DNA from: Gemmatimonadota bacterium
Lineage (GTDB): Bacteria > Gemmatimonadota > Gemmatimonadetes > Gemmatimonadales > Gemmatimonadaceae
DNA: 11,114 nucleotides
Assembly (NCBI GenBank): GCA_031372565.1
Contig: JANMLN010000043.1
Span: 1 to 11,114, forward strand
Direction of reading: 5' to 3'
The notes under the pieces are model-generated. The model was not told where the DNA came from. It did not search any database and worked only from the letters and a program-made list of their open reading frames with translations. The translations under genes were made by a program, and so were the position numbers. Below are positions 901 to 7,796 of the stretch, one piece after another (position 1 is the stretch's first letter; the number at the start of each line of letters is the position of its first letter).

Positions 901-1287
901 CTACTGCGGCAGTGCGTAGTCGAACGTGTAGCGATGCACCTTCCCCTCGATCTCGATGCGGAACGTGCCGGCAATGCCGGCGAGTTCGCCGGTGCCGGAG
1001 TCTGGCACCACGCTGATGGCCAACTGCTGCGCACCGCGCGACATCGTACCGCTGTGCTGGAAGACGAACGTGCCGCGCTTCCCGCACAGCGTGCCCTCCA
1101 CGCGTTCGATCGCCACGTACGCGGCCGAGCCCTTGGTCTCGGTCATCGCCGTCAGCATCTCACCCGCGCCCGTGCCTGCGAGGTCCCCATGAAAGACCTT
1201 GTCGAGCCGGAAGCGCGCGGGGAGCGCGGCGGGTTCGGTGATCGGCGTCGTGGTGACATCGAAGGTGCCGGTGGCGACGAGCAGCAT
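901..1287 (-). CDS. DUF3224-like small beta-barrel protein
   Basis: Family-typical segments ATGTFDV, KVFHGDLAGTGAGEML, GSAAYVAIERVEGTL-G--GTFVFQH and VVPDSGTGELAGIAG. The ATG at 1287 (128 aa) fits the family N-terminus better than the GTG at 1317. Confidence 0.8.
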   Translation of the reverse strand: MLLVATGTFDVTTTPITEPAALPARFRLDKVFHGDLAGTGAGEMLTAMTETKGSAAYVAIERVEGTLCGKRGTFVFQHSGTMSRGAQQLAISVVPDSGTGELAGIAGTFRIEIEGKVHRYTFDYALPQ

Positions 1288-1380
1288 GGGGAGTTCCAAT
1301 GGAAGATGGACCGTCACGCGTGGCGCAGCAGGGCTGCAAGCTATGTCGGCCCGCGCTCACGACACAACGCGTGCGTGCGG

Positions 1381-2754
1381 CTAGAACGTTGCCGTGACCG
1401 AGACGAACCCCCACGTGTACGGCAGCGCTGCCCCCGTTGCGCGGAGGTAGTCGCCGGGCGTGAATCGCGCGACCCCGCCGTCAAGGCGCAGGTGTCGACC
1501 AACGCGCCAGATCGCCGTGAGGTCGGCCTCTCCACCGACGTCGCGCGGAGCGTTGGGGATGCTCGCACGCAGGACAGCACCCGTCACGTCATACGCGGCG
1601 TCGTCAACGCTCGCGCGCTGGAACGCGTGGACCGACGTTCGGATGCGCACCGAAGGCGTGGGCGACCACTGGCCGACGATTCGCTCCTCGATGGCGTTGC
1701 GCCGCCCGAGCACATCGGCGAAGCCCAGGAAGGCGTGCGCCAGCGGATACAGTTGGTCCCACGTGCCAGACTGCGCAGGCGCGCCCGCGCCCGTCCCGCT
1801 CGAGTAGTCCGCGCCGACGGTGATTGACGGAGCATGAGAACCGCCCCACGTCCGCGTCAGGTCGGAGACGAACATCCACGCCTGCACGGCGTTGCTACCA
1901 GCCGAGCCGACCTGCAGCCCACCCTCGAACTCATACGTCAACGCAGCGCCCGCCACTGCGCCGAGCGTGCGTGCCGCGATCGTCGTGCGCTGCGAAGCGG
2001 GCGCCGTGCCGGCCGCGTCAACACGCCGGACCAACGCATAGGCCTCGGTGATGGCACTTCCGCCCCGATCCCAGTTCACTTGGCCACCCCACAGACTCGT
2101 GTGCACGTCGGGCACGTTCATCCCGGCAGACACGATGTTCACCGGGTGCACCCAGAGCGCTGTGTACGCGAACGCGCCGGCCCGACCCTCGATCACGCCG
2201 CCCTGAAAGGTCCGACGCGCGTTCACCCAGTCGAGTGGCGACAGCACGCGCTCGCGACCGAAGAGAAGCTCCTGTCGGCCCAGCCGCACGGCCCAGTGAC
2301 CGGAGCCGATCGCGATGTCGCGCGCCTCCACGAAGCCCTGCTGCACATCCGCATCGTCGCGATCGGCCGTGCGGATGCCGCCGGGGAGGTCGCGGCCGCG
2401 TGCGCTCGCGACGCGCCCCTCGACGAAGGCACGCAGGTGGTCGGTCGCGTGGAGGTCGGCGTGGAGGTGAACCCGCACGAGTCCGAAGTTGTCCGTGCGC
2501 ACACCCGCGCCGCCGCCCAGGAAGTTGTCGTCGCGTTCGACGCGCGCGCGCACGTGACCGCCCAACGATAGCCAGGCCCCATCGTCCCACAGCGCGATGT
2601 GCTTCAGCGGATCCATGGCATCACCCGTCACCGGTTTCGACCAATCCTCCCGGTACCGGACCATCTCGTACGCGGGACGGGAGGCCGGGGCCTGAGCGGC
2701 AAGTGGCGCGACAGTCAGAGCAACCAGCATCGAGGAGTAGCGCACAACACGCAT
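1381..2754 (-). CDS. Alginate export (AlgE-like) family outer-membrane beta-barrel protein
   Basis: Signal peptide (MRVVRYSSMLVALTVAPLAA-Q). Family-like motifs RYREDWS, PLKHIAL, WLSLGGHVRARVE, RLGRQELLFGRERVLSPLDWVNARRTFQG and TWDQLYPLAHAFLG. Alternating beta-strand pattern and a C-terminal Phe (SVTATF). Confidence 0.8.
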   Translation of the reverse strand: MRVVRYSSMLVALTVAPLAAQAPASRPAYEMVRYREDWSKPVTGDAMDPLKHIALWDDGAWLSLGGHVRARVERDDNFLGGGAGVRTDNFGLVRVHLHADLHATDHLRAFVEGRVASARGRDLPGGIRTADRDDADVQQGFVEARDIAIGSGHWAVRLGRQELLFGRERVLSPLDWVNARRTFQGGVIEGRAGAFAYTALWVHPVNIVSAGMNVPDVHTSLWGGQVNWDRGGSAITEAYALVRRVDAAGTAPASQRTTIAARTLGAVAGAALTYEFEGGLQVGSAGSNAVQAWMFVSDLTRTWGGSHAPSITVGADYSSGTGAGAPAQSGTWDQLYPLAHAFLGFADVLGRRNAIEERIVGQWSPTPSVRIRTSVHAFQRASVDDAAYDVTGAVLRASIPNAPRDVGGEADLTAIWRVGRHLRLDGGVARFTPGDYLRATGAALPYTWGFVSVTATF

Positions 2755-2784
2755 GGGACAGGAGCCCCGGAAAGAGGAAGCCGA

Positions 2785-4035
2785 TCAGCGGAGTAGTGGA
2801 ACCGACGAGGGCGCATCACGTTGTGGCGCAGCCGCGTCGGCCGCGACGATCGCACCCGCGAGACGGGTGCGATCCGGCGGGATCCGGCGCTCCTGGTGAC
2901 GCACGATGCCATCCGCATCGAGCACCGTGATGATGTTCGAGTGCTCGAAGTCGAAGGACGGAAGCCGGCGATAGCTCACGCCCAGCAACGCGGCGAGCGT
3001 GCGGACGCTCGGCTGCGCCGCTGTGAGCAGGTGCCAGTGCGCATCGAGGTCCATGCGCGTGGCATAGGCGAGCAGCACGGCGGTCGAGTCGCGCCAGGAA
3101 TCGAACGACGCGAGTACGAAGCGCGTGCGCCCGCGCACATCAGCAGGCAGCGAGGCCTGCACCGCCTGCAGTTCGGCCGTGATCACCGGGCAGGTCATGG
3201 CGCACGAGAAGTAGACCATGGCGAGCACGACCGGTGCCCCGCGCAGCCCGGCGAGCGCAAACGGCGCGTCGGTCGCATCGGTCCACGTCGCGGGGACCGC
3301 GTACAACGATCCGCGCGGCACCGGCACTGTCGCCGCCGCTTGCGGTGGCCGCGCGGCCTGCAGATCGCGCGCGAGGCGAATGCCAAGGGAGCCGAGCGCG
3401 TACGACGCTCGCAGTGAGGCACGCAGCGCCGCCCGCATGAAGCCCGCGTAATTGGTAGGATCCGTTGCCAGCGCCGATCCGCCTGCACAGAAGAGCCCCG
3501 CGTCGGGATCTCCGTCACCACGCGACTCACCCGACGTGATCACGCTGTTGAAATCCTCCACCCACTCCCAGGTCTCGGGCCGCGCGATGGTCCCGGTCTG
3601 CATGTGGCCGCGCTCCAAGGCGAGCTCCCACTCGGCCGCGCTCGGTAGTCGCGCTCCCGCCCACTCGGCGTAGGCCGAGGCGGCAAACCACGACACGTAC
3701 ACCACGGGATCCCGGCCTGGTGCCGCACGGCCAAGCACCGTGTCGCCCGACCAGTGCCGCAGGTACGACGTGTCCGCCGCCATGCGCGCCACACGTGATC
3801 GCCGCCATTCGGGCCGCGCCACCACGAAGCGGCGGAACGCTTCGTTGCTGACGGGCTCCGTCGCGAGATCGAACGCGGCGACTGCCGACCGCCGCGCGAC
3901 GGTCGACGCGGCGTACAACGGGCGGATGCGACCCGCGGCCACGCGCTGCCAGCGCGGCGCCGGCTGCGCCGCGAGCACGGTCGCCGTCGCGCACAGCGTG
4001 GCGACGACCGCCGACAAGAGGCGATGCGGGCGCAT
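2785..4035 (-). CDS. Exported fusion protein: N-terminal FGE-sulfatase (NirV-like) domain plus C-terminal SCO1/SenC copper-chaperone domain
   Basis: Sec-type signal peptide. FGE-family motifs EPVSNEAFRRFV, PVVYVSWFAASAYAEWAGARLPSAAEWE, WEW and LGIRLARD (aa ~28-224). Pro/Ala-rich linker. SCO motifs LAGLRGAPVV, YFSCAMTCP (C278-x3-C282), SFDSWRDS and FEHSN (H365). The start ATG overlaps the nirK stop (TGATG). Confidence 0.85.
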   Translation of the reverse strand: MRPHRLLSAVVATLCATATVLAAQPAPRWQRVAAGRIRPLYAASTVARRSAVAAFDLATEPVSNEAFRRFVVARPEWRRSRVARMAADTSYLRHWSGDTVLGRAAPGRDPVVYVSWFAASAYAEWAGARLPSAAEWELALERGHMQTGTIARPETWEWVEDFNSVITSGESRGDGDPDAGLFCAGGSALATDPTNYAGFMRAALRASLRASYALGSLGIRLARDLQAARPPQAAATVPVPRGSLYAVPATWTDATDAPFALAGLRGAPVVLAMVYFSCAMTCPVITAELQAVQASLPADVRGRTRFVLASFDSWRDSTAVLLAYATRMDLDAHWHLLTAAQPSVRTLAALLGVSYRRLPSFDFEHSNIITVLDADGIVRHQERRIPPDRTRLAGAIVAADAAAPQRDAPSSVPLLR

Positions 4036-5579
4036 CAGTCGTGTCCCGCACCGCCGGCCTTCGGGACGTACTTGCCGGACGCACGGACTCTCCGCACGTC
4101 GGCGACGGTCACGCCGTCACCTGCGTTGCCGAAGGCGCCGCGCACGTACGTGAGGACCGCGGCGATGTCCGCATCCTTGAGCTGGAGCGAAGGCATCACG
4201 TTGTTGTACGTCTTGCCGTTCACCTGGATCGCCCCGGACAGGCCGTGCATCACGACGCCGATGGAGCGCTCCTTGTTGGCGAGGAGGAAGTCGCTCCTCG
4301 CGAGGGGTGGAAAGGCGCCCGCCACGCCCTGTCCGTCGAGCTGGTGGCAGGCCACGCAGTTGCCGGCGAAGAGTTGCTTGCCGCGCGCGAGCAACTCGTT
4401 CCGCGACGGCTCCCTGGTCATGGTCAACGCCTTGGGGGTCACCGCAATCGCACTCGGCACGGCCTGCACCGTGCTGCCCTCGGGGAGGTAGACGAAGTCG
4501 CCCTGCTTGCCCGAGTAGACCGCGACGTTCTGCGGCACCTCCACCTTGATCATGCCCAGCGCGCCCTTGTTGAAGGCGCGAAAGATCGAGTGGTCCACAA
4601 GGATGAACGTCCCGGGCACGTCGAACGTCATCTCGACAATCGCCGAGCCGCCTGCGGGAATGAGCGTCGTCTGCCCGTTGCGCTGGTTCGCGACCGACCC
4701 GCCCTCGGTGTAGATGCGGTCGAAGATCTCGCCGATCACGTGGAAGCTCGAGACGAGGTTCGGGCCGCCATTGCCGACAAAGAGGCGCACCGTTTCGCCG
4801 ACCTTCGCGTGGAGCGCGTTGTCGCCGACGAGGGCGCCCACCGAGCCGTTGAACACCACGTAATCGGGCTTCTCGTCGAGCGCCTTCTCCATCGCGAAGC
4901 TCTGCAGTCCGGGCTCGCCGTGCTTGCCCATGGTATAGAACTCGCTCTGCAGCACGTAGTACTCGCGGTCGACGGGCGGCAACCCTTCTTTCGGCTCGAC
5001 CAGGATGAGGCCGTACATGCCGTTGGCGATGTGCATGCCGACCGGCGCCGTGGCACAGTGATAGACGTACAGGCCCGCGTTGAGCGCGGTGAAGCTGAAC
5101 TGCGAACTGTGCCCCGGAGCGGTGAACGACGACGCAGCGCCGCCGCCAGGCCCGGTGACCGCATGCAGATCAATGTTGTGGGGCATGTGGCTTGACGGGT
5201 GGTTGTTCAGATGGAACTCCACCTCGTCCCCTTCGCGGATCCGGATCATCGGTCCCGGCACCGAGCCGCCGAAGGTCCAGAACGTGTATTCCACGCCGTC
5301 CGAGAGGCGTTTCGTGAGTTCACGCGTTTCAAGGCTGACGACGAGCTTGGCCGATGTGCGTCGCATGATCGGCGGCGGCACCTGCGGGGCAAACGTGACG
5401 GCGAGCGTTTCAACCGGCAGCGGCCCGCGTGCCGCTGCGGTGAGCGTGGGCCAGGCGCCGCCGACGGTGCCTGCGGTGCGGAGAGCGCCGTCACGTCCCG
5501 CAGCGAGTGCATGTCCACCGAGCGCGACCGCGGCGCCAAGGGACAGGGTGGAGAGGGTCAAGGAAAGGCGGGGCGTCAT
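4035..5579 (-). CDS. nirK: Copper-containing nitrite reductase (AniA-like) with fused C-terminal cytochrome c domain
   Basis: Type-1 Cu ligands H134/C175/H183/M188, type-2 Cu ligands H139/H174/H330 and catalytic D137/H280, found in [35 protein letters not shown] and LVDHS. Heme motif CVACH (408-412) with a likely distal Met in VMP (M462). N-terminal signal peptide. GAGGA ribosome site at 5584-5588. Confidence 0.96.
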
Positions 5580-5583
5580 GCGA

Positions 5584-5588
5584 TCCTC
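5584..5588 (-). promoter_or_regulatory. Shine-Dalgarno site of nirK
   Basis: The minus strand reads GAGGA-TCGC-ATG; the spacing is short (4 nt). Confidence 0.55.
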
Positions 5589-5628
5589 ACGAGGTGTGGC
5601 CCGCCATGCGGGCGTTTCATATCTGATT

Positions 5629-5649
5629 ACATCATGAGCATGTCAGCTT
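5629..5649. promoter_or_regulatory. Candidate Rrf2 operator upstream of nirK
   Basis: ACATCATGAGCATGTCAGCTT is 16/21 identical to 6202-6222 upstream of rrf2. It is an AT-rich island 49 nt from the nirK ATG. Confidence 0.6.
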
Positions 5650-5654
5650 TATGC

Positions 5655-5680
5655 GATGGCACCCGCGCAGGGGCGCCGTC
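5655..5680 (-). terminator. GC-rich hairpin just after the rrf2 stop; possible weak terminator or processing structure
   Basis: The minus-strand RNA GGCGCCC-CUGCGC-GGGUGCC forms a 7-bp stem with one G-U pair, plus 2 more pairs after a mismatch. There is no U-tract. Confidence 0.25.
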
Positions 5681-5684
5681 CCGA

Positions 5685-6155
5685 TCAGGATCGTCGTCGC
5701 CCCGCCACGTCCGCACGCGCACGAGCGGCGAACGGCCGCGCCCAGGACGCGGTCGGCGGACCCGCGGCCATGTCCGCGATCGTCGTCGTACGAAAGAAGG
5801 CGGTGACCTGGCTCGAGACACCCTGCCAGCGCTCGTGCGCCGGACACGGATTCTTGGCGGAGCACTCGGGACGGCCGAGCAGACAGTGCGGCCGCTCGTC
5901 GATCACCTCGAATGGCGCGATGACGTCGTGCAGTCGGATCGTCACGGCCGACCGCCCGAGAGAAAAACCACCCGACTTGCCGCGCGTGGACCTGAGGACC
6001 CCCGCTCGTGCGAGCTGATGCAGCGTCTTGGCGAGATAGTTCTGCGGAATTCCGAGCGCCGCGGACAACGGAGCAACCTGCACGAGCTCCCCCAGCGGTT
6101 GCTGCGCAATGAAGACCACGGCACGGAGCGCGTATTCGGCAGTCTGGGAGAGCAT
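5685..6155 (-). CDS. Rrf2-family transcriptional regulator with a predicted Fe-S cluster (3 Cys + His)
   Basis: Rrf2 N-terminus MLSQTAEYALRA (ATG at 6155), recognition helix IPQNYLAKTLHQL, wing STRGKSGGFSL and cluster motif C91-x6-C98-x5-C104-x2-H107. Confidence 0.93.
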   Translation of the reverse strand: MLSQTAEYALRAVVFIAQQPLGELVQVAPLSAALGIPQNYLAKTLHQLARAGVLRSTRGKSGGFSLGRSAVTIRLHDVIAPFEVIDERPHCLLGRPECSAKNPCPAHERWQGVSSQVTAFFRTTTIADMAAGPPTASWARPFAARARADVAGRRRS

Positions 6156-6201
6156 CGGGCGGTCGGGGTAAAGGTGAACTCCCGGAATATTGAACCTGTT
6201 A

Positions 6202-6222
6202 ACATCATCCACAAGTCATCTT
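6202..6222. promoter_or_regulatory. Candidate Rrf2 autoregulatory operator
   Basis: ACATCATCCACAAGTCATCTT lies inside the imperfect palindrome TTAACATCA-N8-TCATCTTAA (6199-6224), 46 nt from the rrf2 ATG, and matches the nirK upstream site. Confidence 0.6.
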
Positions 6223-6264
6223 AAATGGAGCGGCCCGACGCCATTCCCTGACAGTACCTGTGTC

Positions 6265-6293
6265 TTGACACTCTGTGTTGTAACACATACTCT
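6265..6293 (+). promoter_or_regulatory. Sigma70-type promoter of the MarR gene, probably giving a leaderless mRNA
   Basis: Perfect TTGACA (6265-6270), a 17-nt spacer, TACTCT (TAnnnT, 6288-6293), then only 5 nt before the ATG at 6299. No Shine-Dalgarno sequence. Confidence 0.7.
6274..6287. promoter_or_regulatory. Candidate MarR operator (inverted repeat)
   Basis: TGTGTT-GT-AACACA is a perfect 6-2-6 palindrome lying between the -35 and -10 boxes. Confidence 0.65.
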
Positions 6294-6298
6294 CCAGC

Positions 6299-6766
6299 AT
6301 GCCGCTCACGCTCCGCCCCGAAAGCCGAACGGCGCGCCCCTTCACCTCCCTCGAGCAGGAGGCGCACCTCAACATCGTGCGCGCCGCGCTCGAACTCGAC
6401 GCAGACCTGGACGACGTGCTCAAGCCCTCCGGCATCAGCAGCACCCAGTTCAACGTCCTCCGCGTCCTGCGGGGAGCCGAGCCGGACGGGCTCTGCCGAG
6501 GCGAACTCGGGCTGCGCCTGCTCGGCCGGATGCCGGACGTGACACGCATGCTCGACCGGTTGGAGGCCATGCATCTCGTGCACAGGCAGCGGGAAGTGAC
6601 CGATCGCCGTCAAGTTCGCACGCGCATCACCACGCGCGGGAGCGCCCTGCTGGCCGACGTCGATGCGCACGTGGAGGCGGAGCATGCGCGTCGGCTCGCG
6701 CACCTGGGTCCGAGAGACCTCCGCACGCTGGTGGCGTTGCTGACGCGCATCCTGCAGCCCGAGTGA
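6299..6766 (+). CDS. MarR-family winged-helix transcriptional regulator
   Basis: Motifs LKPSGISSTQFNVLRVL, PDVTRMLDRLEAMHLVHR and the wing DRRQVRTRITTRG; 155 aa. Confidence 0.92.
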   Translation: MPLTLRPESRTARPFTSLEQEAHLNIVRAALELDADLDDVLKPSGISSTQFNVLRVLRGAEPDGLCRGELGLRLLGRMPDVTRMLDRLEAMHLVHRQREVTDRRQVRTRITTRGSALLADVDAHVEAEHARRLAHLGPRDLRTLVALLTRILQPE

Positions 6767-6845
6767 CCTCAAGGCGACCGCGCCTCGAACCGATGCGCGA
6801 TGCCTTGATCACCGACAGCGTTTCCGCCTCCACGAGGACACAACC

Positions 6846-7796
6846 ATGAGCGCCAGCACCCCCGCACTCTTCGGCGACACGCCACGCGCCGAGCCCGCAA
6901 CGCCGGGTAGCTACGGCGAACCGCCGCGCGGATACCGGCTCCCCGCAGCGACGCGCCTCGGCGCGGTGCACCTGCAGGTGGCCGACCTCGCGCGCTCGGT
7001 TGCGTTCTATGAGGGCACGCTCGGTTTCGCTGTCGCGGCGCGCGACGCGCAACGTGCCGTCCTCACCGCGCAGGACAGCGACCGTACGCTCATCGAACTG
7101 CACGAACGGCGGGGCGCCAAGCCGGCGGGACGGCGCGCGCAGCTCGGCCTTTTTCACGTCGCCATCCTCCTGCCCGAGCGCGCGTCGTTGGGCCGCTTCC
7201 TCCGTCACATGACCGCGCTGGGCGTACCGGTCGGCGCGGGCGATCATCGTGTCAGCGAAGCACTCTACCTCAGCGATCCGGATGGACTGGGCCTCGAGGT
7301 GTACGCGGATCGGCCGCGCAACACATGGCAGCGCCTCGGTCGCGAGCTGATGCTCGCCACGGACCCGGTGGACATGGGAGGGCTGCTCGACGCCGCCGGC
7401 GATGCGACATGGACCGGCATGCCTGCGGGCACGACGATCGGCCACGTGCACCTGCACGTGGGCGACATCGAGATGGGCGCACGGTTCTACGCCGATGCGG
7501 TCGGCTTCGACAAGATCACGTGGCGCTACCCTGGCGCACTCTTTCTGGGAGCGGGCGGGTATCATCATCATCTGGGCACCAATACGTGGGCAGGCCCCGA
7601 CGCCCCGAGCGCAGACGAAAACGATGCGCGGCTGATCGCGTGGACGATCGAACTCCCCGATGCGGCGAGCGTGGCCGAGGTGACCGCCAGCCTGCTGGCA
7701 GGCGGCTACGACGTGGCGCGCGAGGGCCCGCACAGCGCGAGCACCGATCCCTGGGGAACGAAAGTCGTGTTCGCCGTGGCCAAGGTGCCGCACTGA
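6846..7796 (+). CDS. Two-domain VOC/glyoxalase-family protein, CatE-like catechol 2,3-dioxygenase
   Basis: Motifs LGAVHLQVADLARSVAFY, GLFHVAILLP, DHRVSEALYLSDPDGLGLEVYADRP, IGHVHLHVGD, GGYHHHLGTNTW and DPWG. GAGGA at 6834-6838 lies 7 nt before the ATG. The substrate cannot be established from sequence. Confidence 0.88.
   Translation: MSASTPALFGDTPRAEPATPGSYGEPPRGYRLPAATRLGAVHLQVADLARSVAFYEGTLGFAVAARDAQRAVLTAQDSDRTLIELHERRGAKPAGRRAQLGLFHVAILLPERASLGRFLRHMTALGVPVGAGDHRVSEALYLSDPDGLGLEVYADRPRNTWQRLGRELMLATDPVDMGGLLDAAGDATWTGMPAGTTIGHVHLHVGDIEMGARFYADAVGFDKITWRYPGALFLGAGGYHHHLGTNTWAGPDAPSADENDARLIAWTIELPDAASVAEVTASLLAGGYDVAREGPHSASTDPWGTKVVFAVAKVPH

Follow-up and report, generated by a model that had tools for sequence, protein, structure and literature searches.

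NirK is the commonest nitric oxide (NO)-forming nitrite reductase in soils and waters, and to our knowledge the way in which it is supplied with copper is known for one system only. Its gene was reportedly found by Jain and Shapleigh in 2001 to form an operon with nirV in Rhodobacter sphaeroides 2.4.3. The subject of this analysis is a four-gene relative of that operon, located at positions 1381 to 6224 of an 11,114-nt stretch of Gemmatimonadota DNA (contig JANMLN010000043.1 of assembly GCA_031372565.1; the whole stretch is referred to below as the window). It is probably a fuller version of the classical nirK-nirV cluster: an Rrf2-repressed nitrite-to-NO operon equipped with its own dedicated NirV-Sco factor for assembling copper sites, and with an anion channel.

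In the alphaproteobacterial nirK-nirV operon, a signal peptide-bearing protein with the fold of the formylglycine-generating enzyme (FGE) is encoded directly after nirK, just as in the window; the differences are that the NirV of the window is fused to a Sco domain and has lost ~36 residues, and that an outer-membrane barrel and an Rrf2-family regulator have been added. The activity of NirV was still being called unknown in 2023 (PMC10356946, in its available part). The precedent for a periplasmic metallochaperone that is dedicated to a NirK comes from Neisseria gonorrhoeae, in which the PCuAC protein AccA loads copper into AniA: the accessible text (PMC13006917) states that NirK needs a metallochaperone, that PCuAC proteins are not present in all NirK bacteria, and that there may be an "alternative, unidentified" chaperone. 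AccA belongs to the PCuAC family, whereas the putative counterpart in the window is NirV-Sco. Separate NirV-like and Sco genes after nirK are known from Ralstonia. Plasmid CP076412.1 of Ralstonia wenshanensis carries the same core of overlapping genes for NirK-cytochrome c, a NirV-like protein and Sco (nirK, "formylglycine-generating enzyme family protein" and "SCO family protein" in the annotation), with a qNOR gene running the opposite way, and R. solanacearum has the same core, in which RSp1502 and RSp1501, following aniA, are noted in the available portion of PMC4453514 only as "putative signal peptide-encoding genes". The Ralstonia loci differ in having separate NirV and Sco genes, no barrel, a divergent qNOR gene and regulators of other types.

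Other components of the locus have their own relatives. The cbaBA-senC genes of Bacillus azotoformans likewise pair a dedicated Sco paralogue with the cuproenzyme that it presumably serves (PMC3475470, accessible part), except that the client in such heme-copper oxidase, sNOR and qCuANOR clusters has a CuA center, while NirK has type-1 and type-2 copper. Clusters of Rrf2, oxidase and Sco genes in Gemmatimonadota follow this pattern too. Control of nirK by NsrR in Nitrosomonas europaea, Neisseria and other betaproteobacteria (PMC1274295, available part) also involves a three-cysteine Rrf2 regulator next to nirK and a site before the regulated gene; the regulator in the window differs in scoring far below the NsrR equivalog cut-off, and its candidate site shares only a GATGTWA half-site with the consensus. 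The enzymes PhNiR (PDB 2ZOO) and RpNiR (PDB 3ZIY) have the same architecture as NirK of the window, in which all of the metal-ligand columns are kept and nothing is notably different; the published structures are silent on accessory genes, and the available part of PMC10999283 contains nothing about them. AlgE of Pseudomonas aeruginosa (PDB 3RBH, 4AFK) shares its Pfam family and 18-strand fold with the barrel of the window, at 15-16% identity; the barrel of the window is linked to nirK clusters and has no alginate genes nearby. A literature search, outside of which lay subscription journals and supplements, found no paper linking nirK with NirV/FGE and Sco, and none linking nirK with an alginate-export barrel.

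The genes and their associated sites are the following:

6196 to 6222, minus strand: box before rrf2, 27 nt, a candidate promoter or operator and putative autoregulation site (direct repeat family D1)
5685 to 6155, minus strand: Rrf2-family regulator, 156 amino acids (PF02082, TIGR00738)
5623 to 5649, minus strand: box before nirK, 27 nt, a candidate promoter or operator, inside the 105-nt rrf2-nirK spacer
5599 to 5613, minus strand: GC-rich hairpin GCCCG...CGGGC, past the box and ahead of the nirK start codon
4035 to 5579, minus strand: NirK-cytochrome c, 514 amino acids, three domains, N-terminal signal peptide (TIGR02376 and PF00034)
2785 to 4035, minus strand: fusion of a NirV-like domain (FGE-fold, non-catalytic) to SCO1/SenC, 416 amino acids, one signal peptide (PF03781 and PF02630)
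1381 to 2754, minus strand: AlgE-fold barrel, 457 amino acids, signal peptide, C-terminal Phe (PF13372)

Four genes on the minus strand are the sole coherent reading of 1381-6224. They had been proposed, from the letters and their open reading frames, as four co-oriented genes (rrf2, nirK-cyt c, FGE-SCO and an AlgE-like barrel) with a 1-nt overlap, a 30-nt gap and a shared upstream motif, and each of these elements holds: Pfam and NCBIfam matches identify all four proteins; the A of the nirK stop codon TGA, at 4035, is also the A of the ATG of the fusion gene; 30 nt (2755-2784) separate the fusion gene from the barrel gene; and the motif is found at two sites only in the genome. The spacer between rrf2 and nirK is 105 nt, taking rrf2 to start at 6155. 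The genes are presumably co-transcribed. The source genome is a Gemmatimonadota metagenome-assembled genome (MAG), a draft of 4,439,198 bases in 201 contigs that is 95.85% complete; the G+C content of the window is ~68-70%, and its DNA occurs in freshwater-sediment metagenomes, no RNA run being among the listed sources.

How widely is this arrangement distributed? A search of one genome per species with an alignment of the fused protein yielded 596 relatives, of which the best 80 loci were kept, and all of their stop-to-stop frames were scanned with the domains of the window and a barrel profile. (A technical note: these 80 loci were chosen by likeness to the fusion, and consequently give no estimate of a share among all nirK genes.) The gene directly upstream of the NirV-like gene is nirK in 77 of the 80 loci, and the other three are cut by contig ends, starting <500 bases before the FGE-like domain; 71 of the 77 nirK-bearing loci have the cytochrome c domain. 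NirV and Sco occupy one frame in 15 loci and adjacent frames in 61, with the remaining four cut by contig ends. A barrel gene accompanies the cluster in 26 loci (after Sco in 22, before nirK in three; 69 of the 80 extend at least 1300 bases beyond Sco), and an Rrf2 gene lies within the locus, that is, within ~5 kb, in 11. Co-conservation of the gene set, on which the original proposal was made to depend, is borne out by this neighborhood search, with all five parts present together in G217, a genome that is described below.

Labeled by their record titles, the loci come from Verrucomicrobiota, Bacteroidota, Planctomycetota, Gamma-, Beta- and Alphaproteobacteria, Myxococcota, Kapaibacteria/Chlorobiota, KSB1 and Gemmatimonadota, and linkage of the barrel to nirK is found under the labels Gemmatimonadota, Verrucomicrobiota, Myxococcota, Gammaproteobacteria, Bacteroidota and Chlorobiota. 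Cultured carriers include Dyella jiangningensis SBZ 3-12, Salinimicrobium soli, Aquimarina atlantica, Frateuria terrea, Negadavirga shengliensis and Rhodanobacter spathiphylli. D. jiangningensis SBZ 3-12 has nirK-cytochrome c, NirV, Sco and the barrel, A. atlantica and N. shengliensis both have Rrf2, and the S. soli strain is KCTC 32163. Four MAGs labeled Verrucomicrobiales or Verrucomicrobiota (L059, L061, L085, L100) have nirK-cytochrome c, fused NirV-Sco and barrel genes exactly as in the window, and a plasmid collection contains 118 Ralstonia megaplasmid records with the NirV-like/Sco pair. The combination is thus not peculiar to this genome: Ralstonia records annotate its core, Dyella, Salinimicrobium, Aquimarina and others have that core too, and the arrangement of the last three genes recurs in the four MAGs just named.

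The NirV-Sco fusion is itself recurrent. A search of 1.84 billion cluster representatives gives 138 matches at E <= 1e-30, and at least 30 of the best 150 representatives of 50%-identity clusters span both halves, to go by their listed lengths and ranges. For 87 rows of concatenated NirV and Sco domains, a tree (IQ-TREE quick search with only SH-aLRT, the Shimodaira-Hasegawa-like approximate likelihood ratio test, as support) requires five changes between the fused and the separate state, and at least three of these changes are forced by well-supported branches. The window forms a clade with G001 and G003 (99 SH-aLRT) that is nested among separate-gene Gemmatimonadota; elsewhere on the tree, fusion is seen in a group of nine Verrucomicrobiota (100), in two pairs of Planctomycetota and in one Longimicrobium. 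On the evidence of this tree, the fusion arose at least three times, and such repeated, independent joining supports a functional tie between NirV and SCO. The Gemmatimonadota constitute two distant lineages on the same tree, which hints at transfer of the cluster.

A sample of 251 genomes of the phylum (the tally includes an unpublished genome, G012, on which no specific claim rests) permits a closer look at which parts travel together. Within the genus, NirV and Sco are fused in G001 and G003 and lie in different frames in G002 and G005, with nirK before and the barrel after them in all four. A NirK that is at least 59% identical to that of the window is encoded in 17 of the 251 genomes. Ten of these orthologues, in other genera, carry the cytochrome c domain; the other seven are two-domain proteins, and FGE and SCO genes adjoin in six of the seven. 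In G073 and G121 the barrel gene directly follows nirK-cytochrome c, with neither an FGE nor a SCO gene. In G217, which belongs to another genus and has 52% G+C, the genes for Rrf2, NirK, NirV, Sco and barrel stand in one tight row, with NirV and SCO separate.

Two side observations concern the edges of this distribution. Locus L043 (G154:C1, 4266-5891) has a 541-codon frame in which an N-terminal fragment of NirK (56% identical to residues 49-169) precedes an Alginate_exp barrel (residues 169-522), as though a nirK locus had decayed and the remains of nirK had become joined to the barrel frame. In two genera a small open reading frame (145-147 amino acids) with a weak likeness to COX1 adjoins the nirK cluster (L029, 2623-3066, and L044, 4164-4601; genomes G217 and G047); in G217 the small frame comes after the barrel gene.

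The enzyme offers few surprises. NirK scores 353.5 bits with TIGR02376 (cut-off 296.3), its Cytochrom_C domain (PF00034) occupies residues 398-480, and residues 56-501 match PDB 2ZOO with 615 bits and 3ZIY with 609 bits. His134, Asp137, His139, His174, Cys175, His183, Met188, His280 and His330, which we take to be the copper ligands and the catalytic Asp and His, are invariant columns in 31 sequences and align with 2ZOO. The heme-binding CxxCH motif (Cys408, Cys411, His412) and the axial Met462 are invariant in the same 31 sequences, and the cytochrome c domain aligns with 2ZOO and 3ZIY up to residue ~500. To judge from these columns, NirK is an ordinary member of the well-studied three-domain heme c-copper class.

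The protein encoded next is less ordinary. One 416-amino acid frame contains an FGE-sulfatase domain (PF03781, 75.2 bits, residues 41-145) and a SCO1-SenC domain (PF02630, 35.8 bits with a cut-off of 22.8, residues 252-376) behind a hydrophobic N-terminus ending in VLAAQP. Its first part has the attributes of a NirV--an FGE-sulfatase domain in a secreted protein, encoded directly 3' of nirK--and is 36-60% identical to stand-alone homologues of ~270 amino acids. When Streptomyces FGE (6MUJ/2Q17) is aligned with it, LCHD--SYC falls on LATDPTNYA: both of the catalytic, Cu(I)-binding cysteines are replaced, and the domain is therefore NirV-like rather than FGE. A different, single cysteine, Cys183, is nearly invariant in NirV-like domains, which have no invariant His. 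Relative to other NirV homologues, ~36 residues are deleted between the EWE and WEW motifs (window 3351-3650), a deletion that is common to the clade of the window and some stand-alone relatives (P0016, P0018). In the Sco half, two sets of fused sequences, one of 10 and one of 24, keep Cys278-x3-Cys282 and His365 without exception, and the model of this half matches Bradyrhizobium japonicum ScoI, human SCO1 and Arabidopsis thaliana ScoI (template modeling (TM) score normalized to the target, ~0.8), with further matches continuing into peroxiredoxins and DsbE/ResA-type reductases. The mean predicted local distance difference test (pLDDT) score of the model of the fusion is 77.5, falling to only 30-40 across model residues 142-191. 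In separate-gene relatives Sco has its own cleavable signal peptide; in the fusion this peptide has been lost, and the mature N-terminus of Sco is joined to NirV by a ~20-residue linker. On contig C76 of the source genome a PCuAC gene and a second SCO-like match lie ~300 bases apart, which makes the Sco beside nirK an extra, and putatively dedicated, copy. The description of this protein as a fused copper-loading factor survives in part: the CxxxC/His site of SCO is kept and the fusion with NirV is a repeated one, but the role in loading copper is presumptive, and the copper-binding cysteine pair of FGE is absent.

That the fusion might be an artefact of assembly or a frameshift was considered and rejected: the frame is intact in G001 and G003, which are two further species-level genomes of the genus, and the linker is also covered by contigs from two more samples of that study, which agree with it in every letter and have neither insertions nor deletions. 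In three metagenome runs there are contigs, at a depth of 8.5-10, that join 3372 to 3949 through 17 different letters; they may come from a related strain in which most of the NirV-like domain is missing, or be a mis-laid relative.

The barrel scores 210.6 bits with PF13372 (Alginate_exp) and is encoded by the only gene of this family in the genome. Its sequence has no match among solved structures; its model (pLDDT 82.5, ~18 long strands) matches AlgE best (3RBH and 4XNL, E 1e-18, TM 0.66-0.74), and the top 17 matches listed are all AlgE, with resemblance also to substrate-specific and general porins. Four arginines, Arg71, Arg94, Arg160 and Arg169, are invariant in 27 barrel sequences. The gene does not lie in an alginate operon: it is flanked by the nirK cluster and by a DUF3224 gene (no search of the genome for alg genes was made). 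When the barrel alone was used to search for loci, only two contigs were found, both from the same genus. A close homologue (36% identity) at another locus (L040, G252:C21, 6204-10129) is encoded divergently to a methyl-accepting chemoreceptor with a NIT (nitrate/nitrite-sensing) domain.

The boxes before rrf2 and nirK first attract attention as a shared 13-mer, ATGATGTWAWCAG, that occurs once before nirK (5623-5635) and once before rrf2 (6196-6208); 0.01 matches are expected, and two copies occurred in none of 200 shuffles. The likeness of the two boxes extends over 27 nt, 20 of which are identical. Throughout the genome, the 13-mer and a relaxed core, TGACWT-N4-ATGAT, match at these two sites only, with 0.03 and 0.27 matches, respectively, expected from composition. 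Three relatives keep the core: in G003 it precedes what is left of rrf2, and in G005 and L049, the locus of a Gemmatimonas MAG, it lies in the spacer from which rrf2 and nirK diverge. The box contains a -35-like hexamer, TGACWT, because of which the roles of promoter and operator are not separable; five sites yielded no convincing dyad. The hairpin at 5599-5613, whose stem was reported on the plus strand, is without a T-run on the coding strand, and a GCCCG...CGGGC hairpin is found at the equivalent place in G003.

The candidate for binding the boxes is the regulator encoded between them, which scores 97.5 bits with PF02082 and 108.4 bits with TIGR00738 (cut-off 73.3). Its likeliest start is the ATG at 6155, where the Pfam match begins, and less likely the GTG at 6212 of the list of open reading frames. 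Cys91, Cys98 and Cys104 (C-x6-C-x5-C) and His107 can be read from the translation, in an IscR-like spacing. The possibility that this gene is one of several paralogues was rejected: it is the only match above the family cut-off, and so the sole clear Rrf2 gene in the genome. Among solved structures it has only a distant likeness to IscR and RsrR, and none of its eight PDB matches is an NsrR structure. Of the proposal of Rrf2 control, for which NsrR was given as a precedent, the superfamily and a trio of putative cluster-binding cysteines are borne out, and the protein falls short at NsrR itself: the NsrR model (NF008240) gives 55.3 bits where 182 is the cut-off, and the IscR model (TIGR02010) gives 62.3 bits where 207.55 is the cut-off.

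Neighborhoods tell more. Rrf2 genes also adjoin nirK, in both orientations, in G005, G014, G217 and L049. The best orthologues of the regulator in the phylum (49-53% identity) are encoded beside a cluster for a heme-copper oxidase and SCO in four loci (L033-L036, in G085, G172, G075 and G205): Rrf2, an uncharacterized ~185-amino acid protein, a 577-614-amino acid COX1-family protein and Sco (a SCO1/SenC region confirmed by Pfam in two of the four loci and by a search match in the other two), divergent to a fusion protein of cytochrome b, 4Fe-4S ferredoxin and FlpD. The layout of Rrf2, oxidase and SCO resembles the cbaBA-senC sNOR clusters of Bacillus, as far as these are set out in the available part of PMC3475470, and these four loci are a candidate for an unusual NO reductase system in Gemmatimonadota. 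An NO-related role of the regulator is supported by this association only.

G003 provides what looks like a natural loss of the regulator. All that is left of rrf2 in this genome (L014, G003:C192, ~7467-7601) is the C-terminal third, of which tblastn covers residues 101-145; the box, nirK, fusion and barrel are intact despite this decay.

What else does the source genome offer for nitrogen oxide metabolism? The nirK gene is present in a single copy, the only gene above the TIGR02376 cut-off. In this draft, at the completeness already given, nosZ of either type, narG and a globin gene were not found, and nothing scored above the cut-off for napA. Only two genes of the COX1 family are present, the second of which was typed as a CcoN-CcoO fusion, and a hidden NOR was rejected within the reach of the search; the NOR-like oxidase of the relatives has no homologue above ~20% identity in the source genome. 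A molybdopterin oxidoreductase with weak likeness to NapA and NarG is encoded elsewhere (G000:C160:1119-2990) in two frames with a TGA between them, and may be a frameshifted or selenocysteine-containing gene.

The mechanism that we propose, and consider probable in its main lines, is as follows. NirK would reduce nitrite to NO with electrons entering through its own cytochrome c domain. The periplasmic NirV-Sco fusion would be a dedicated factor for the assembly or maintenance of the copper sites of NirK, its CxxxC/His site serving in copper delivery, or in thiol/copper redox handling, and its NirV domain acting as a NirK-specific adaptor. The arginine-lined, AlgE-fold barrel would most likely pass an anion, nitrite, across the outer membrane of a cell whose genome has no detectable nitrate reductase to make nitrite inside. 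Rrf2, presumably an Fe-S regulator by virtue of its three cysteines, probably binds the boxes before its own gene and before nirK, and would release them when NO or nitrite is present.

Each of these assignments has a competitor. NirV-Sco might instead be a thiol:disulfide or redox-repair factor, not a copper chaperone, that keeps the type-1 copper Cys of NirK, or some other periplasmic target, reduced or free of NO damage; the single conserved Cys of NirV and the CxxxC of Sco would then form a thiol relay. NO is made by NirK right beside these proteins, the thioredoxin fold of Sco has matches that run on into peroxiredoxins and DsbE/ResA-type reductases, and NirV-like domains hold on to Cys183 and to no His; but the Sco His that accompanies copper binding is invariant, and the top fold matches are copper-binding Sco proteins. 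We judge this redox alternative to be rather improbable. For the barrel, the choice is between an anion (nitrite) channel, which we prefer tentatively and at somewhat less than even chances, and an unlikely, though not far-fetched, role in copper uptake for NirV-Sco and NirK, or as a general porin that is simply co-located. The position of the barrel gene directly after Sco in 22 of the 80 loci, next to a copper-handling gene and not the enzyme gene, speaks for copper, and the breadth of porin folds that it resembles and the unrelated neighborhoods of its closest homologues would suit a general porin; set against these are the invariant arginines and the AlgE fold, which suggest an anion-selective pore, the direct succession of nirK-cytochrome c and barrel in G073 and G121 with no FGE or SCO gene present, the one close homologue that is divergent to a NIT-domain chemoreceptor, and the placement of the only family member of the genome in its nirK cluster.

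The regulator, finally, could be an IscR-like or housekeeping protein that merely sits beside nirK, with the 27-nt box a promoter element rather than an operator. It is the only Rrf2 protein of its genome, it scores slightly higher with the IscR model than with the NsrR model (62 versus 55 bits), the presumed IscR-like spacing of Cys91, Cys98, Cys104 and His107 and the -35-like TGACWT in the box are as this alternative would have them, and G003 keeps its cluster without an intact regulator. Against this alternative stand the confinement of the box to two places in the genome, including the one ahead of the regulator's own gene; the recurrence of Rrf2 next to nirK in both orientations (in the four cases already named and in 11 of the 80 wider loci); and the company of its nearest orthologues, which is NOR-like oxidase clusters and not isc or suf genes. 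We accordingly put little weight on a housekeeping regulator.

A Rrf2-repressed operon for making NO from nitrite, with its own copper-site assembly factor and anion channel, remains the reading that we favor, and it has to contend with a substantial list of contrary observations. 1) The parts are facultative: none of the 10 cytochrome c-type NirK orthologues of other genera has an adjacent FGE or SCO gene, the barrel is present in a minority of the 80 loci and Rrf2 in still fewer, the adjacency of FGE and SCO in those loci is partly the result of having picked them for their likeness to the fusion (no such selection bears on the neighboring nirK, barrel and Rrf2 genes), and NirV itself, found in ~61% of nirK genomes, is not mandatory (PMC4770552, available part). 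Rrf2, moreover, is usually absent, and is degraded in G003. 2) The NirV-like domain is without the copper-binding cysteines of FGE, the most conserved loop of that domain coincides with the region of low model confidence (pLDDT 30-40), and the genome has its own PCuAC gene and therefore a second copper-chaperone route. 3) Outside the genus, the proteins most similar to the barrel (35-40% identity) are encoded away from nirK. 4) The regulator falls below the cut-offs of both the NsrR and the IscR models, its box, with GATGTWA, when fitted by eye, resembles only one half of the NsrR consensus gATGyAT-N5-ATrCATc (as published in the accessible part of PMC1274295), and in G003 the N-terminal ~100 codons of rrf2, and with them the DNA-binding half, are gone. 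5) A scan of 1200-6400 for sigma-70 promoters found no promoter-like site, and terminator-like sites in the same interval are no more frequent than in shuffles, so that transcripts are not delimited by consensus matches.

The surroundings of the cluster are ordinary. On one side there are genes for a tetratricopeptide repeat (TPR) protein and a DUF3224 protein, and on the other a divergent MarR gene and genes for a two-domain glyoxalase-family protein, a Na+/H+ exchanger and an arginine decarboxylase. No mobile-element genes are found among these flanking genes, and the suggestion that the cluster is a portable unit is only weakly supported as a result. The MarR gene, divergent to rrf2, and the following two-domain glyoxalase/VOC gene (window 6299-7796) are a syntenic pair in G003, and a MarR-DoxX-glyoxalase set is also found 3' of the nirK cluster in G259 (L030); a tie of this pair to the nirK cluster is possible.

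One can take the joint reading a step further, to a picture that we regard as somewhat unlikely in its entirety: NirV and Sco would be a dedicated system for assembling the copper centers of NirK in the many bacteria that do not use an AccA-type chaperone, with NirV as the docking adaptor, the barrel would be a nitrite-selective channel, and the whole, in a genome without nar, nap, nor and nos, would amount to a stand-alone device for converting nitrite to NO, switched by a single Fe-S regulator. A role for NirV in docking to NirK would explain a gene that has been without a known function since it was named, and a nitrite-selective outer-membrane channel, if that is what the barrel is, would be of a class not yet described.

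All of the parts come from annotated families and many public genomes already contain the cluster, so that its value lies in the link between the parts and not in a new kind of system. As a recurrent co-location the module is real: it is a widespread, annotated and apparently undiscussed extension of the nirK-nirV cluster, of which the window is the most compact form. With nirK, NirV and Sco in the same order across some ten labeled phyla and classes, with at least three fusions, and with cultured, tractable carriers, there is now a testable hypothesis for NirV and for the maturation of NirK, and the recurrence of the AlgE-fold barrel suggests that nitrite may have its own path through the outer membrane. 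That nirK is the only gene for a step of denitrification found in this genome bears on the origin of environmental NO.

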